Assembly: GCF_003018115.1 (NCBI RefSeq)
Contig: NZ_CP027457.1
DNA: 64,000 bases
Strand: one strand, 5' to 3'
DNA from: Escherichia coli
GTDB taxonomy: Bacteria > Pseudomonadota > Gammaproteobacteria > Enterobacterales > Enterobacteriaceae
Positions 1,448 through 23,760 of the stretch are shown here, piece after piece (the stretch's first letter is position 1; each line of letters opens with the position of its first letter). The notes under the pieces were generated by a model. The model worked only from the letters and a program-made list of their open reading frames with translations. It was not told the DNA's origin and ran no database searches. The position numbers and the translations under genes are program-made.

Positions 1448-2119
1448 ATGCAGTACCCGATTAACGAGATGTTCCAGACCCTGCAAGGTGAGGGTTACTT
1501 TACCGGCGTCCCCGCCATTTTTATTCGTTTACAGGGATGCCCGGTTGGCTGTGCCTGGTGCGACACCAAACACACCTGGGAAAAGCTTGAGGATCGGGAA
1601 GTCTCCCTTTTCAGCATTCTGGCGAAGACCAAAGAGAGTGATAAGTGGGGGGCGGCGAGCAGTGAAGATTTGCTGGCTGTCATTGGTCGTCAGGGATATA
1701 CCGCGTGGCATGTGGTGATTACGGGTGGTGAGCCTTGCATTCATGATTTGCTGCCACTGACTGACCTGCTCGAAAAGAACGGTTTTAGCTGCCAGATCGA
1801 AACCAGTGGGACTCATGAAGTACGCTGCACACCGAATACCTGGGTTACCGTATCACCAAAGCTGAACATGCGCGGCGGCTATGAAGTGTTGTCACAGGCA
1901 CTGGAGCGAGCCAACGAAATCAAGCATCCAGTGGGGCGCGTACGTGATATTGAAGCACTGGATGAACTACTGGCAACGCTGACCGATGATAAACCGCGAG
2001 TCATTGCACTGCAGCCGATTAGCCAAAAGGATGATGCCACACGTTTGTGCATTGAAACCTGCATTGCGCGTAATTGGCGTTTGTCGATGCAAACCCATAA
2101 ATATCTAAATATTGCCTGA
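1448..2119 (+). CDS. queE: 7-carboxy-7-deazaguanine synthase (radical SAM)
   Basis: 223 aa; N-terminus MQYPINEMFQTLQGEGYFTGVPAIFIRLQGCPVGCAWCDTKHTW with a CxxxCxxC-type cluster motif typical of QueE. Confidence 0.9.
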   Translation: MQYPINEMFQTLQGEGYFTGVPAIFIRLQGCPVGCAWCDTKHTWEKLEDREVSLFSILAKTKESDKWGAASSEDLLAVIGRQGYTAWHVVITGGEPCIHDLLPLTDLLEKNGFSCQIETSGTHEVRCTPNTWVTVSPKLNMRGGYEVLSQALERANEIKHPVGRVRDIEALDELLATLTDDKPRVIALQPISQKDDATRLCIETCIARNWRLSMQTHKYLNIA

Positions 2120-2379
2120 TTAAACATTTATAAGCGTTATAAATGGGTGGAACCTGTAAAGACTTCTACTCATTTATATTGTTTGTCGCCTCTGAAAACT
2201 CCTCCATTTTCCCCATCCAGGGCTAATCATTAGCATTCTCTACAAATTCTGCGGCATTAATTTTTCGCTGGAGTGAAAATTATTGCGGCAAAGTTTGGTA
2301 GATTTTAGTTTGTATAGAGTTATTTTAAATATTTACCTTTTTAATCAATGGATTAAGCGCTCTTTAACATAATGGATGT

Positions 2380-2458
2380 GTTGTTTGTGTGATACTGTAA
2401 AGTTGGTAGATTGTGACTGGCTTAAAAAATCATTAATTAATAATAGGTTATGTTTAGA
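2380..2458 (+). promoter_or_regulatory. CRISPR leader (AT-rich) immediately upstream of repeat 1
   Basis: AT-rich ...tggtagattgtgactggcttaaaaaatcattaattaataataggttatgtttaga directly abutting the first repeat; resembles the E. coli I-E leader from memory. Confidence 0.6.
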
Positions 2459-3219
2459 GAGTTCCCCGCGCCAGCGGGGATAAACCGAAAATTGGGACGC
2501 TAACTCATGGGTCTGGGTAGAGTTCCCCGCGCCAGCGGGGATAAACCGGGAAAAACGCCTGTGGTTGGGGCTGAACCAGGGAGTTCCCCGCGCCAGCGGG
2601 GATAAACCGTCGGCGCGCTCTCTGTAGAGCGGTTGTGTGATGAGTTCCCCGCGCCAGCGGGGATAAACCGTCGTCGGGTCCGACAGGGGTCGGTTGTTCG
2701 CCGAGTTCCCCGCGCCAGCGGGGATAAACCGGCTTAATAAACGAGGAGAATACCGATGTTTTTAAGTTCCCCGCGCCAGCGGGGATAAACCGTTCTTTTA
2801 ATGGCGTCAGGCCCATTACAGAGCGAGTTCCCCGCGCCAGCGGGGATAAACCGTTTTGACGATTATTCTAAAAGTGAAAATAGCAGAGTTCCCCGCGCCA
2901 GCGGGGATAAACCGCACGCTGGAGTGACCGGGTGGCAGAGCATGACGAGTTCCCCGCGCCAGCGGGGATAAACCGCCATTTCATCATGAACGGCGGAAAT
3001 ATCGTGGGAGTTCCCCGCGCCAGCGGGGATAAACCGGTCAGTTCCCGGTTGATATATATGATGAGCATGAGTTCCCCGCGCCAGCGGGGATAAACCGCGC
3101 AATGGCGCGGCGATTGCTCTCGAGATCAAGTGTTCCCCGCGCCAGCGGGGATAAACCGGGTACAAAAGAGGCCCCATTCTGGCAGGGCTCGAGTTCCCCG
3201 CGCCAGTGGGGATAAACCA
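2459..3219 (+). CRISPR. Type I-E CRISPR array, 13 repeats and 12 spacers (queE-ygcE side)
   Basis: 29-bp repeat GAGTTCCCCGCGCCAGCGGGGATAAACCG at 2459, 2520, 2581, 2642, 2703, 2764, 2825, 2886, 2947, 3008, 3069, 3130, 3191 with exact 61-bp period and 32-bp unique spacers. Repeat 6 starts AAG, repeat 12 starts GTG, terminal repeat 13 is degenerate (..CCAGTGGGGATAAACCA). Confidence 0.97.
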
Positions 3220-3308
3220 CCATATAACCCGTTATCTCTTTCTCAAGTTTTTATATTAGCTGTACTTGTAATAAGCAACATATCCACGTAACACCTCATG
3301 TTCATAAT

Positions 3309-3332
3309 AGTTCCCCATGCCAGATAAGTTCA
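3309..3332 (+). repeat. Decayed CRISPR repeat remnant
   Basis: agttccccatgccagataag resembles the repeat with an internal deletion, about two repeat-spacer units beyond the terminal repeat. Confidence 0.3.
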
Positions 3333-3687
3333 CAATTATCGATACAAAAAATTAAAGTTAATCAAAGTGTTATTTGTATAATTCTTAAGCCGTTAAGAAA
3401 TTTTAATCTATTATTTTTTTAATATTAATTAATGCCTGTTAATTTTTTCTTTAGTATAACAGTGTGTTTTTTAAGCTTGTTATTCATTGATTAAGTAATA
3501 AATCTGGAAATTTGTCTTTGTTTTGAGGCTAATGAGTGGTTTTACATAACCGCCTCTATACGCTGTTGATGAATAGTTCTTATGAATAAAGATATCCAGT
3601 TCATACTTTAAGTGAAAATTGATAAAGTGCGATTCGTATTGTCTTTTATTCTAAAGACATCGAGTGTAGTTAATATTCCTTGTAAAA

Positions 3688-3810
3688 ACAGGGATAAACC
3701 GAACTAGTTGAAGTTTTTATTATGTTCCCTGCATCAGCGGGGATAAACCGGACTTGTTATCATTTTTTAAGTTGTCGAACTTATGTTCCCCGCGTCAGCG
3801 GGGATAACCA
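3688..3810 (+). CRISPR. Degenerate satellite CRISPR array (3 repeat copies, 2 spacers), preceded by an AT-rich leader-like stretch
   Basis: Partial repeat ..acagggataaaccg (3688-3701), 20-bp spacer, repeat ATGTTCCCTGCATCAGCGGGGATAAACCG (3722-3750), 32-bp spacer, repeat ATGTTCCCCGCGTCAGCGGGGATAACC (3783-3810). Confidence 0.8.
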
Positions 3811-3856
3811 TTCAGGTATGTTCAGGCCGGGCAGTTTCCCGCCCGGTCTTCCTCAC

Positions 3857-5335
3857 TTACGCATTCGACCAGCTCTGGATCGAATCCGCATTCCCCAATT
3901 CCCCATGCATCACTTCATACGATTTTTTCAGGATCACATCAGTATGTTTGGTTAGGGCTTTGAAAATACCTTTATTCATCGCGTCGTAGCGTTTGGCATT
4001 GCTCTCAACAGGCATAAAGATATCTTTCACGCGAACCATTTTGTCGACAGCCGTTGCGTAATCCGGGTATAGCCCCAGACCTACCGCCGTATTGATCGCT
4101 GCCCCCAGACTTGCACAACCGTTAATGGCGTTACGGCGTGCAGGAAGGTTGAACACGTCGGCAAAAATTTGCATAAATAGATCGCTGTTCGAACCGCCGC
4201 CAGTAATGATCACATGCTTTGCAAAGTGATTCATTTCATTACACATATTGTCGTAATTGTTCTTCAGCGTCAGCGCCACGCTTTCCAGTATCGAACGATA
4301 TATCCATGCGTAATCCATGCTGGAATCAAAGCCGATCATAATCCCACGTTTGTAGGGTTCCCACGGGTTGGTCAGCCAGTCCAGCACCGTCATCAGACCA
4401 TTACAGCCAGGCGGCACACAAGAAGCTTTTTTGTTGAGCAAATCTTCCGGTGAAAGATCCTGTGCTTTGGCATCCTGAATTAACGACTCGCCTAACATGT
4501 CGCGTAGCCAGCTCACCGTCCACATGCCTTTACGGATACCGTACCCTTCATACAGCAATGTTTCCGGAATAGAAGACATAATCGGCCAGTACGCCACCGG
4601 ATCTTTCGGCAGTGCTTTACCGTTCATCATCAGCGCGATGTAGGTGCCAAGAGAAATCACCGCCGTTTCATCATCCAGCAATCCGGCTCCCAGAGCTTCT
4701 ACCGGTTTATCACTGGTGGTACAAACAACCGGCAGCCCTGCCGGGAAATGTGTCGCCAGCGCGGCTTGAGGTGTGATCTGTCCAAGAACAGTGCCTGGCA
4801 TTTGCACATCAAACAGCATATGACGGGGGATATTAAACTTCTCCATGACTGCGGCATCTTCACTCCATGCCCAGCTCTTATAATCCACCGGCCACTGACC
4901 AAAATAGTTGGCGATATTGTCTTTAAACTCGCCGGTTAAGCGATGCGTCAGATAACCCGAAAAAGAGGTGACATATGCCACGTCAGGATTAGTGTGTTCG
5001 TAGGGACGCGTTACGCGTGCATCCTGCCAGCTAATCAATGGCGCAGCTGGCGTGCCATCGGCTTTCAATAACGCACGGCAGCAACGGATGGATCCCAGAC
5101 CAATACCGACAATATCTTCTTTATTCCCGGCAAACTGACTCATCAAATCGTGACCGGCAAAACATAATGATGCCCATAAATCGTCGTCAGGATGTTCTGC
5201 GGTATCGGCATCTGGCGTGTGCATCGGCTGCAATAAGCCTTTACCTTCGCAAACCACATTACCTTCCAGATCGTACATCACCACTTTTGTGCTCTGACTT
5301 CCGCCATCAATCCCTATGATGTATTTTTTCGACAT
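3857..5335 (-). CDS. ygcE: FGGY-family carbohydrate kinase
   Basis: 492 aa; N-terminus MSKKYIIGIDGGSQSTKVVMYD (FGGY kinase N-terminal motif); synteny. Confidence 0.88.
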   Translation of the reverse strand: MSKKYIIGIDGGSQSTKVVMYDLEGNVVCEGKGLLQPMHTPDADTAEHPDDDLWASLCFAGHDLMSQFAGNKEDIVGIGLGSIRCCRALLKADGTPAAPLISWQDARVTRPYEHTNPDVAYVTSFSGYLTHRLTGEFKDNIANYFGQWPVDYKSWAWSEDAAVMEKFNIPRHMLFDVQMPGTVLGQITPQAALATHFPAGLPVVCTTSDKPVEALGAGLLDDETAVISLGTYIALMMNGKALPKDPVAYWPIMSSIPETLLYEGYGIRKGMWTVSWLRDMLGESLIQDAKAQDLSPEDLLNKKASCVPPGCNGLMTVLDWLTNPWEPYKRGIMIGFDSSMDYAWIYRSILESVALTLKNNYDNMCNEMNHFAKHVIITGGGSNSDLFMQIFADVFNLPARRNAINGCASLGAAINTAVGLGLYPDYATAVDKMVRVKDIFMPVESNAKRYDAMNKGIFKALTKHTDVILKKSYEVMHGELGNADSIQSWSNA

Positions 5336-19651: not shown

Positions 19652-19817
19652 ATATTGCCGGATAAATTAAACGCCTCTGTCAGAAATGATGGGGGCGTTT
19701 TTATTTTGCGAGCAGCATTCCTGATTTTAAACGTGAACGCCGCTGGAAGAATTATCAGGTATAGAATGGCGTCGGGTGCTTGAGGCTGTCTGGCGTTAAG
19801 CATTCGCGAGGTTCCAG

Positions 19818-19922
19818 ATGGACAAAAGCCCCAGGCGATATTTCTATCAACCTGAGGCTTACGTTCGAACCCAAACAATTCGAATGTTAGTCTCTTCTTT
19901 GCAGGGAGGCAAGACATGCTGA
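19818..19922 (+). CDS. mok-like upstream ORF (34 aa), translationally coupled to hok
   Basis: ATG 19818 with SD gagg 7 nt upstream; stop TGA overlaps the hok start (ATGCTGA). Confidence 0.35.
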
Positions 19923-20068
19923 CAAAATATGCCCTTGTGGCAATCATCGTACTGTGTTGTACAGTACTGGGATTCACGCTGATGGTAGGTGACTCGTTGT
20001 GTGAGTTGAGTATCAGAGAACGTGGTATGGAGTTTAAGGCAGTTCTCGCTTACGAATCGAAGAAGTAG
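19916..20068 (+). CDS. Hok/Gef-family type I toxin (50 aa membrane peptide)
   Basis: [50 protein letters not shown]; hydrophobic N-terminal helix plus the SLCE(I/L).(I/Y)R...EV.A..AYES.K signature of Hok proteins; SD ggagg 6 nt upstream; below the 60-aa cutoff of the ORF track. Confidence 0.8.
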
Positions 20069-20261: not shown

Positions 20262-22358
20262 ATGCGTAAATATCCTTTAAGTTTACTGAAGGATAAAAAT
20301 ATTGTGACTTTTTTTGATTTCTGGGGAAAAACCCGACGCGGCGAGAAAGACGGGGGCGACGACTATCACCTTCTTTGCTGGCATTCGCTGGATGTAGCCG
20401 CGATGGGCTATTTAATGGTTAAAAGAAATTGCTTCGGGCTGGCTGATTATTTTCGTCAATTAGGGATTTCTGACAAGGAACAGGCGGCTCAATTTTTCGC
20501 CTGGTTGCTGTGCTGGCACGATATTGGAAAATTTGCCCGCTCTTTTCAACAACTTTACCTGCCCCCTGAACTCAAGATTCAGGAAAGTGCCAGAAAAAAT
20601 TACGAAAAAATCTCTCATTCAACGCTGGGCTACTGGTTGTGGAATCATTATTTAAGTGAATGTCAGGAGTTACTTCCTTCATCTTCGCTCTCTCCGCGCA
20701 AACTTAGGCGAGTGATAGAAATGTGGATGCCCGTGACGACAGGGCATCATGGTCGGCCCCCTGATCGTATGGATGAATTGGATAATTTTCTGCCTGAAGA
20801 CAAAGCTGCAGCACGAGATTTTCTCCTTGAAATCAAACCACTGTTTCCGCTCATAGAGATCCCCGCATTCTGGGATGATGATGAGGGCATTGAACTTATA
20901 AAACACCTTTCCTGGTATATCTCTGCAACCGTCGTGCTCGCAGACTGGACGGGTTCGTCAACGCGATTTTTTCCACGCGTCGCACACCCAATGGATATTA
21001 AAGGTTACTGGCAGAAAACTTTAATTCAGGCTCAAAACGCCTTAACCGTCTTTCCTCTAAAAGCAAAAGTCGCGCCTTTCAACGGAATTAATACGCTGTT
21101 TCCTTTTATTGAGAATCCGACACCGTTACAGCAAAAGGTGCTGGATCTGGATATCAGCCAGCAAGGACCGCAGTTATTTATTCTGGAAGATGTGACTGGC
21201 GCAGGTAAAACAGAAGCGGCGCTTATCCTGGCGCACAGGTTGATAGCTGCGGGGAAAGCTCAGGGGCTGTTTTTTGGTCTGCCAACAATGGCAACGGCCA
21301 ATGCCATGTACGATCGGCTGGTCAAAACCTGGCTTGCTTTCTATTCGCCAGAATCCCGCCCCAGCCTGGTGCTGGCACATAGTGCCCGCACATTAATGGA
21401 CCGCTTTAATGAATCACTCTGGTCTGGTGATTTAGTCGGGTCAGAAGAACCGGATGAACAAACGTTCAGTCAGGGATGTGCGGCCTGGTTTGCCGACAGT
21501 AACAAGAAGGCGTTGCTGGCTGAAATTGGCGTCGGCACGCTGGATCAGGCGATAATGGCGGTGATGCCGTTCAAACATAATAATCTGCGGCTTCTGGGGC
21601 TGAGTAACAAAATCCTGCTGGCTGATGAGATCCACGCCTGTGACGCTTACATGTCGTGCATTCTTGAAGGGTTGATCGAGCGGCAGGCGCGTGGCGGAAA
21701 CAGCGTTATTTTGCTTTCTGCCACGTTATCTCAACAGCAGCGCGACAAACTCGTCGCTGCCTTTGCGCGGGGTACAGAGGGCCAGCAAGAAGCTCCGTTC
21801 CTGGAAAAGGATGATTACCCCTGGCTGACGCATGTCACGAAATCCGATGTGAACTCACACCGGGTAGCGACGCGCAAAGACGTTGAGCGTAGCGTCAGCG
21901 TGGGTTGGCTTCATAGTGAACAAGAGTGTATTGCGCGTATCGAATCGGCGGTAAGTCAGGGGAAATGCATCGCCTGGATCCGGAATTCTGTCGATGACGC
22001 TATTAAGGTTCATCGTCAGCTGCTTGCCCGCGGCGTCATTCCTGCTTCCAGCCTTTCACTTTTTCATAGCCGCTTTGCTTTTAGCGATCGCCAGCGAATT
22101 GAAACGGAAACGCTGGCACGCTTTGGTAAATATTGTAGTTTACAGAGAGCGTCGCAAGTCATTGTTTGTACACAAGTAATTGAGCAAAGCGTGGATATTG
22201 ACCTGGACGAAATGATCTCCGACCTGGCCCCTGTTGATTTGCTGATTCAGCGAGCAGGACGATTACAGCGGCATATCCGCGATATTAATGGTCAGTTAAA
22301 GCGTGACGTGTTCCCCGCGCCAGCGGGGATAAACCGGGTACACGGATATTCTGTCTAA
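20262..22358 (+). pseudogene. cas3: cas3 (type I-E HD nuclease / DExH helicase), 3'-truncated and fused to CRISPR repeat 1
   Basis: HD-domain motifs (CWHSLDVAA, HDIGKF), Walker A DVTGAGKTEAA, DEAH-type LADEIH; reading frame runs into the first repeat at 22308 (residues VFPAPAGINR encoded by repeat) and stops in spacer 1; about 680 aa of Cas3 sequence against about 890 expected. Confidence 0.85.
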
Positions 22359-22702
22359 AAGTTAACTAGTGTTCCCCGCGCCAGCGGGGATAAACCGACT
22401 GATAACGCCGGAGCCTTCTTTTTCAGCAAGTGTTCCCCGCGCCAGCGGGGATAAACCGAGGTTGACGTTGATTTTGTTCGTTATGTTGCCGTGTTCCCCG
22501 CGCCAGCGGGGATAAACCGACCTCGACAATGACACGGGCGCGAAAACAATCGTGTTCCCCGCGCCAGCGGGGATAAACCGTCGGTGGCTGGATTGAAAAA
22601 GAAGATAATCTGGTGTTCCCCGCGTCAGCGGGGATAAACCGGGCGCACTGGATGCGATGATGGATATCACTTAGAATTCCCCGCCCCTGCGGTAGAACTC
22701 CC
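22308..22702 (+). CRISPR. Type I-E CRISPR array, 6 intact repeats plus 1 degenerate terminal repeat, 6 spacers; no leader
   Basis: Repeat GTGTTCCCCGCGCCAGCGGGGATAAACCG at 22308, 22369, 22430, 22491, 22552, 22613 (61-bp period, 32-bp spacers); repeat 6 carries cgcgTcag; degenerate copy gaattccccgcccctgcggtagaactc at 22674-22702. Confidence 0.95.
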
Positions 22703-22722: not shown

Positions 22723-23760
22723 TCAAGACGCCTTCGCCAGCTCCTTCACCAGCGGTAGCATTATCCGCATAACATCACGGCAGCGACGTTCTATTCTTCC
22801 AGGAAGTGCCTTATCAATATGTTGTTGATTATCCAGTCTTACGTCATGCCAGCTATTTCCCGCCGGGAAGGCAGGTGTTTTTGCGCGTTGCTGATAACCA
22901 TCCTTATTCCCAAGATTCCAGTTAGTCGCTTCCACCGAAAGTACAGCAATGCCCGCTTTGTCGAATATTTCTGCGTCATTACAACACCCAGTGCCTTTCG
23001 GATAATTTTTATTCAAACCCGGATTGGTCGTTGCGGCTATTCCGTGACTGCGCGCAATTGCCAGCGCCCTGTCGCGCGTTAATTTCCTTACTGCTTCAGG
23101 GGTTTTTACACCGCTGTTGAAATACAATTTATCGCCAACAATTAAGTTATCGAGATTAATCACCAGCAGCGTATTTTTCTTTTCGGTGTCACTCATCCGC
23201 TTGAGTAAATTCTCAGCGCCTAATTTCCCTTCCTCTTCGCCGCTGGTCGCCACAAATCGAATACCATACTCGGTAGGCGTATTTTTCAGGCGTTCTGCCA
23301 ATTCCAGCATGACACCTAAACCTGCGGCGTTATCATCCATTCCTTGTAACGTCAGCCCGCCGAGATTGGCATCGGCGTCAGCATCGCTCAGCGGGGCGTA
23401 AGTATCCAGATGCGCCATAATGATGATCTGCTGCGGCGCTTTGCCTTCATGAGCGGCAATCACCGTACTTCCTGTCACGTTATGCCAGTTCTTGCGATTA
23501 TCGCGGGCGGTATAAATATACCGACTATTAAATGTCCGAATATCACTGCGATAACCCATTTGCTGAAACTGTTGGCGAATATAATCGGCAGATAACATTT
23601 CTGCAGGAGTTCCGGTCATGCGTCCCGGAAAGAAAGTAGCAATATGTCGTGCCTGAGTATTAGCAAAATCGCCAGGTTTAGGTGACGAGGCGTGTACGGG
23701 GAGAATAAAGCATACGCCGAGCGCCAGGGCAGCGGTACGGTGGCGCAATGCGGAAAACAT
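22723..23760 (-). CDS. iap: Alkaline phosphatase isozyme conversion aminopeptidase
   Basis: 345 aa with N-terminal signal peptide; synteny next to CRISPR and cysD. Confidence 0.88.
   Translation of the reverse strand: MFSALRHRTAALALGVCFILPVHASSPKPGDFANTQARHIATFFPGRMTGTPAEMLSADYIRQQFQQMGYRSDIRTFNSRYIYTARDNRKNWHNVTGSTVIAAHEGKAPQQIIIMAHLDTYAPLSDADADANLGGLTLQGMDDNAAGLGVMLELAERLKNTPTEYGIRFVATSGEEEGKLGAENLLKRMSDTEKKNTLLVINLDNLIVGDKLYFNSGVKTPEAVRKLTRDRALAIARSHGIAATTNPGLNKNYPKGTGCCNDAEIFDKAGIAVLSVEATNWNLGNKDGYQQRAKTPAFPAGNSWHDVRLDNQQHIDKALPGRIERRCRDVMRIMLPLVKELAKAS

Follow-up and report, generated by a model that had tools for sequence, protein, structure and literature searches.

Repeat variants in three type I-E CRISPR arrays of Escherichia coli as probable historical marks, with a tetraloop substitution shared by two array ends

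The repeat variants in three type I-E CRISPR arrays of E. coli are very probably ordinary historical marks. In the mechanism that we propose, a new spacer would enter beside the leader along with a duplicate of the repeat nearest to it. All later units would inherit any substitution in this first repeat, leaving an array uniform inside while arrays may differ from each other. The units at the trailer end would be the oldest and would never be renewed, keeping old alleles and accumulating changes. A C-to-T substitution at repeat position 13 (T13) would be tolerated because it affects the hairpin tetraloop and not the stem. It may be an old allele retained at the trailer ends of both Escherichia loci, which also arises or spreads repeatedly. 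The anatomy of the arrays, the population frequencies of the alleles, the loop position, its recurrence and a deletion at one locus, on which this explanation is built, were all observed directly.

From left to right, the window (the whole 64,000-nt stretch of DNA that was analysed) carries queE/ygcF, a leader, array A, a remnant array, ygcE, cysJIH, hok/sok, cas3, array B and iap (Table 1). The names cysJ and cysI rest on ORF lengths and K-12 synteny, and cysH was named in sequence matches. The repeats are far beyond chance, with 20 matches in the window and none in shuffled sequences. According to Almendros et al. 2014 (PMC3903273), the I-E layout of E. coli places CRISPR-II between ygcE and ygcF and CRISPR-I between iap and cysH, with 0.5 kb between CRISPR2.2 and CRISPR2.3. 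Array A and the remnant belong to CRISPR-II: they have the ygcE-ygcF (queE) setting, leader2.3 and a small leaderless second array about 0.5 kb off. The end of leader2.3 is the same in K-12, BL21 and others, and the E69 leader is 93% identical. Array A is annotated as a CRISPR in the near-identical strain F9792 (99.6% over 5 kb), and the CRISPR2.2 remnant is kept in 4,122 of 5,426 complete E. coli genomes.

Array B consists of type 2 repeats (GWGTTCCCCGCGCCAGCGGGGATAAACCG) with a 61-bp period and 0-1 mismatch in each of the six, which start at 22308, 22369, 22430, 22491, 22552 and 22613. It lies in the iap-cysH interval, with the anchor spacer and the degenerate repeat on the iap side (22642-22702), as expected of CRISPR2.1. 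The adjoining leader and complete cas-E operon of that locus are absent and a cas3 remnant alone is left; CRISPR2.1 of the window is in a decayed state that has been described in other strains too. The gene context shows that the earlier note had labelled the iap-side array and the satellite array correctly. Tandem Repeats Finder, which is unsuited to spaced repeats, returned fragments of array A only and missed array B. An Rfam scan of the window gave no match at the arrays and a single hit, the sok antitoxin RNA (113 bits, 19774-19931) in the cysH-cas3 gap; hok/sok is annotated likewise in other strains. Array-spanning mechanical ORFs longer than 100 aa (2505-2816, 2863-3177 and 22362-22670 on the minus strand) are artefacts of the repeat structure, not genes.

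Table 1. Coordinates of the features of the CRISPR-II and CRISPR-I loci in the window
Feature	Position	Strand	Basis
queE (ygcF)	1448-2119		
queE (ygcF)-to-array intergenic region with AT-rich leader2.3, ending ...GGTTATGTTTAGA	2120-2458	+	direct reading
Array A, CRISPR2.3 (CRISPR-II locus), 13 repeats, 61-bp period	2459-3219	+	Hamming scan
AT-rich separator (28% GC), ~0.5 kb, CRISPR2.3 to CRISPR2.2	3220-3690	.	composition
CRISPR2.2 satellite remnant, whole	3691-3811	+	Hamming scan, direct reading
CRISPR2.2 partial repeat	3691-3701	+	
Satellite repeat S2 (ATGTTCCCTGCATCAG...), ATG start, T9, A12, T13 at 3734	3722-3750	+	
Satellite repeat S3, ATG start, T13 at 3795, one A deleted from ATAAACC	3783-3811	+	
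ygcE	3857-5335	-	
cas3 (E1/O157-type), C-terminus missing, open frame enters first repeat	20262-22307	+	RefSeq annotation 'missing C-terminus'
Array B, CRISPR2.1 remnant, six GTG repeats, 61-bp period, no leader	22308-22641	+	Hamming scan
Last intact array B repeat, C-to-T at 22625, second hairpin tetraloop base	22613-22641	+	scan, fold
Conserved anchor spacer, 32 nt, GGCGCACTGGATGCGATGATGGATATCACTTA	22642-22673	+	~3,277 genomes; PMC3903273
Degenerate terminal (anchor) repeat GAATTCCCCGCCCCTGCGGTAGAACTCCC, 18/29 consensus matches, weak hairpin	22674-22702	+	direct reading, fold, PMC3903273
iap, marker of CRISPR-I locus	22723-23760	-	

Type 2 (I-E) repeats of E. coli occur as two main variants, CRISPR-A and CRISPR-T (Diez-Villasenor et al. 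2013, PMC3737337), and in CRISPR2.1 the first goes with leader-A/cas-EO and the second with leader-T/cas-EK (PMC3737337). They are told apart by A or T at the second base from the leader-proximal end, and on the window strand GTG is CRISPR-A and GAG is CRISPR-T. At position 2, 6/6 repeats of array B have T and 12/13 of array A have A. As the earlier note had it, array A mostly starts with GAG (11/13 in a Hamming scan with the 29-nt consensus, plus one AAG at 2764 and one GTG at 3130), and all six repeats of array B start with GTG.

Several single repeats of array A depart from this picture. The isolated AAG start (G1 to A, 2764-2792) recurs in CRISPR2.3 of strain E30 beside a different spacer (L004 3697-3725), and the GTG repeat among GAG ones is the second-oldest (3130-3158). 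In the same scan the terminal repeat, 3191-3219, combines a GAG start with T17 and A29. Its C17-to-T change, a G-U stem pair, is also found in O157:H7 and is absent from K-12, MB165 and RM13745; A29 is present in every strain examined.

The contrast between GAG and GTG, which the earlier note had drawn between the two main arrays, is real in this strain and is not a property of the loci. MB165, E30, RM13745 and O157 are arranged like the window. K-12 is reversed: its iap array is GAG and its ygcF array GTG, each with an oldest unit of the opposite type. Many strains have GTG at both loci: in BL21, E2865, 120899 and MS6192 the leader end of CRISPR2.3 is GTG, and GAG is found in the oldest units only. 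These five strains rule out a locus-specific signature. The end of leader2.3 is identical before GAG and GTG first repeats. In a BLAST search of 5,426 complete genomes both types were common, with GTG directly after leader2.3 in about 2,200-2,550 genomes and GAG in about 400-1,250, rough ranges that include partial matches, among them those to K-12-type leader-T and to repeats with an A before them. The copying of the first repeat would make each array internally uniform, and one array could thereby be GAG and another GTG.

The only off-consensus repeat of array B is the last one, with C to T at 22625. The earlier note had matched this variant to the satellite, and T is indeed present at 22625 and at 3795. 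The 16-mer CCCCGCGTCAGCGGGG has exactly two copies in the window, 22618-22633 and 3788-3803, versus 0 expected. T13 is also found in the other satellite repeat (S2, 3734), which the earlier note had overlooked, so that the sharing was slightly understated there.

Frequencies in complete E. coli genomes were obtained with 40-mer searches in which each 28-nt seed was forced to cover the variable site or the anchor spacer. Directly before that spacer, the repeat carries C in ~1,168, T in ~898 and AT (GCATCAG) in ~1,201 of ~3,277 genomes, the C count being 1,332 matches at >=99% identity minus 164 partial ones. The last intact iap-side repeat thus has T or AT in ~64% of anchor-spacer genomes and C in ~36%. 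At S3, T was found in 3,331 genomes (2,922 exact matches) and C in 743 (18%). That the T alleles could be sequencing or assembly errors in this record, the condition under which the earlier note would have failed, can be dismissed with practical certainty, since the same alleles recur in hundreds to thousands of independent complete genomes: the 40-mer with T is exact in those ~898 genomes at the iap end, and S3 with T is exact in 2,922.

T13 is by no means confined to array ends. The GTG-type T13 30-mer occurs at 3,460 places in 1,561 E. coli genomes, up to 23 per genome, and the GAG-type reaches 35 in one E. coli genome; the two 30-mers share a 28-mer and their counts are not additive. Thousands of T13 repeats stand at non-terminal places in E. 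coli. Strain E30 has a complete cas operon, and in its CRISPR2.1 array T13 is carried by the five newest units as well as the last, with C in the three between (L004 31046-31562; leader to anchor, T,T,T,T,T,C,C,C,T). This block pattern implies two first-repeat switches or recombination between arrays. The type 2 consensus printed in the Introduction of PMC3737337, CGGTTTATCCCCGCTGACGCGGGGAACWC, has the T13 allele (A on that strand) and not the usual ...GCTGGCGC...

The iap-side locus of the window has been reshaped by a deletion. Its cas3 is cut after ~682 codons and fused straight to a CRISPR repeat (junction 22307/22308). The cas3 part has 89-100% identity to non-K-12 cas3, and K-12 matches cover the CRISPR part only. 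The mechanical cas3 frame, 20262-22358, continues through the first repeat and spacer, which is an artefact. Measured against MB165, the deletion spans 7,100 bp between cas3 codon ~682 and the repeat before spacer GGTACACGG... and took with it the 3' end of cas3, cse1-cas2, the leader and eight spacer-repeat units. There is 2-bp microhomology (CG) at the junction and no IS element. A cas3-array junction is shared by ~28 of 5,426 complete genomes; the best matches are O169:H41 strains (99.6% identity), which have IS elements that are absent from the window. No CRISPR2.1 leader, cas1-cas2 or cas6e was found within the 64,000-nt window. With the 3' end of cas3, cse1-cas2, the leader and the newer part of CRISPR2.1 gone, the window's repeat variants are relics that have no function at present, unless the genome carries cas genes at another place.

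In silico, the repeat forms a hairpin with a 7-bp stem (positions 5-11 with 16-22) and a GCCA tetraloop, of which T13 is the second base. The predicted minimum free energies are -15.2 kcal/mol for C13, -15.2 for T13 and -14.4 for AT. The canonical, T13, AT, S2, S3 and T17 repeats are all predicted to adopt the same fold, a hairpin of the Cas6e type; T9 in S2 and T17 in the terminal repeat of array A turn G-C pairs into G-U with the fold kept. The degenerate terminal repeat folds poorly (-6.6 kcal/mol). T13 is probably neutral for Cas6e and for Cas1-Cas2. Indirect support comes from T13 repeats in the newest units of E30, with its intact cas operon, and in whole arrays of other genera.

The loop is also the variable part of the repeat. 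Among 41 arrays with 746 repeats, positions 12, 14 and 15 account for 33 of 95 core variant events versus 12% expected (p=7e-9), so that loop positions are about three times over-represented; position 13 is left out of this statistic, the multi-genus loci having been chosen for T13 or AT, which biases its counts. In this set, partly chosen for T13, C13 to T is the commonest single variant event, and in E. coli loci chosen without regard to T13 it makes up ~2 of ~8 independent events. Variant events have a mean relative position of 0.84 along the array, toward the trailer. Trailer ends gather variants anyway. Since C13 to T is the commonest repeat variant in this family, one substitution shared by both array ends is not strongly beyond chance.

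In a single scan of 100,044 species-representative genomes with CCYGCRTCAGCGGGGATAA, 40 loci were returned. T13 is array-wide in Citrobacter sedlakii (24/25 repeats fit the T13/AT pattern), in two Atlantibacter arrays and in one Serratia inhibens array. In a Bacillota MAG it makes up an old block. It is sporadic within arrays of Enterobacter, C. youngae, Erwinia, Samsonia and Pseudocitrobacter, and stands at or near the trailer end in Dickeya, Leminorella, Pantoea, Raoultella, Salmonella diarizonae and two Citrobacter.

Where flank matching indicated orthology, T13 was recovered at the same array ends. On the iap side, a variant of the same anchor spacer is preceded by a T13 repeat in Escherichia sp. 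MOD1-EC7003 (iap 93.7%). In E. albertii (iap 88.9%) the last intact repeat is ATGTTCCCCGCGTCAGCGGGGATAAACCG (ATG plus T13), which agrees with the 5' part of S3 at 25/25 bases. The last two iap-side repeats of S. diarizonae (iap 77%) have T13, and the two Citrobacter have it near the iap-side trailer end. At the other locus, E. whittamii and the E69 lineage (ygcE ~92%) have T13 in S3, and E69 has it at the leader end as well. The CRISPR-II locus of E. whittamii (L029 2966-2994) is one repeat right after the leader, with GAG, T13 and the S3-type 3' end ATAACCAT; judged by its composition, this hybrid looks like a recombination product of a first repeat and a satellite repeat. Enterobacteriaceae bacterium UBA5654 (L020 7176-7254) has a two-repeat CRISPR2.2-like remnant, one repeat S2-like (A1, T9, A12, T13) and the other S3-like (T13), with short cas3-like matches (75-79% identity) within ~2 kb.

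The earlier note had suggested that the array ends share ancestry, and this is supported in part. In favour of it, T13 appears old at both ends in Escherichia; against it, T13 is highly recurrent and homology is seen in the repeat alone. Compared by eye, the spacers and trailers of the two ends show no resemblance outside the repeat, and on this by-eye reading the idea that one array end is a segmental copy of the other was rejected. A lone shared substitution at the repeat's most variable site is therefore weak evidence for common descent of both ends. From the distribution of alleles, T13 at both ends may descend from one ancestral repeat form. Its presence at the same array ends in other Escherichia species fits the retention of an old allele, which we regard as plausible, with a roughly even chance of being right. 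With C in ~36% of genomes at the iap-side repeat and in 18% at S3, either allele could be derived at either site. A further and tentative step would make the trailer-end repeats of both loci (T13, starting with ATG in the satellite and on the iap side of E. albertii) fossils of an earlier Escherichia I-E repeat that pre-dates a replacement of the cas-leader-repeat module.

The main rival of retention is independent recurrent mutation: the T at 22625 and those of the satellite would have arisen separately in a mutation-prone and unconstrained loop, and their match would be silent on ancestry. The frequency of C13 to T among variant events and the excess of loop events speak for it, as do the sporadic T13 repeats of Enterobacter, C. 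youngae, Erwinia, Samsonia and Pseudocitrobacter, the leader-end T13 of E30 and E69, the abundance of T13 away from the anchor in E. coli and a separate TT loop variant in K-12. However, three Escherichia species have T at this site at the iap end, as do three lineages at the satellite. In addition, two double matches are less likely to be independent: A12 with T13 (GCATCAG) in S2 and in the last repeat of K-12/O157, and A1 with T13 (an ATG start) in S3 and in the iap-side repeat of E. albertii. We give recurrent mutation a serious but less than even chance. Exchange between arrays, in which recombination or gene conversion moved the T allele and erased T in other strains, is unlikely as the main explanation. 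Recombination in E. coli arrays is documented (PMC4524480, PMC3903273) and hybrid repeats exist, that of E. whittamii for example; BL21 lacks one unit of MS6192, and its canonical last repeat could be a crossover product. Yet the window's arrays are ~19 kb apart, their two ends share by eye no tract beyond the repeat, and exchange accounts for the loss of T better than for T at both ends. Repeat-repeat recombination is thus a modifier of the history outlined above.

The GAG/GTG dimorphism, the anchor unit, the CRISPR2.2 remnant and the loss of cas genes in E. coli are all already known from publications. The additions made here are modest: the last intact repeat exists in three alleles, T13 is common and in circulation, and it is in the loop that the repeat varies. 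The allele tallies could aid CRISPR-based strain typing, and they carry a warning that single repeat SNPs are poor markers of array ancestry. If trailer-end repeats are indeed fossils, position 13 (and 1) could serve to date and order module exchanges across the genus. The importance of these observations goes little beyond bookkeeping.

The conserved iap-end anchor of CRISPR2.1 is described by Almendros et al. 2014 (PMC3903273) as a degenerate repeat together with one particular spacer. The window has both parts (22674-22702 and 22642-22673), with the T13 repeat directly upstream; the C/T/AT polymorphism at that place is not discussed in the accessible part of that paper. Like the cas-EO strains of PMC3737337, the window has a type A CRISPR2.1 that adjoins an E1/O157-type cas3 remnant. 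That study links repeat variants to leader and cas type for CRISPR2.1 only, whereas the CRISPR2.3 arrays sampled here switch types behind one leader. K-12 has the same loci, the same anchor spacer and the same CRISPR2.2 remnant with T13 in both repeats, but it differs in its intact E2-type cas genes, in GAG at iap and GTG at ygcF, and in AT instead of T in the last intact repeat. E. coli B/BL21 resembles the window in having lost the leader and cas-E genes with a short type-A CRISPR2.1 remnant left (PMC3737337). In BL21, however, IS421 lies at the deletion site and no cas3 remains, whereas the window retains 682 cas3 codons and a junction with 2-bp microhomology and no IS.
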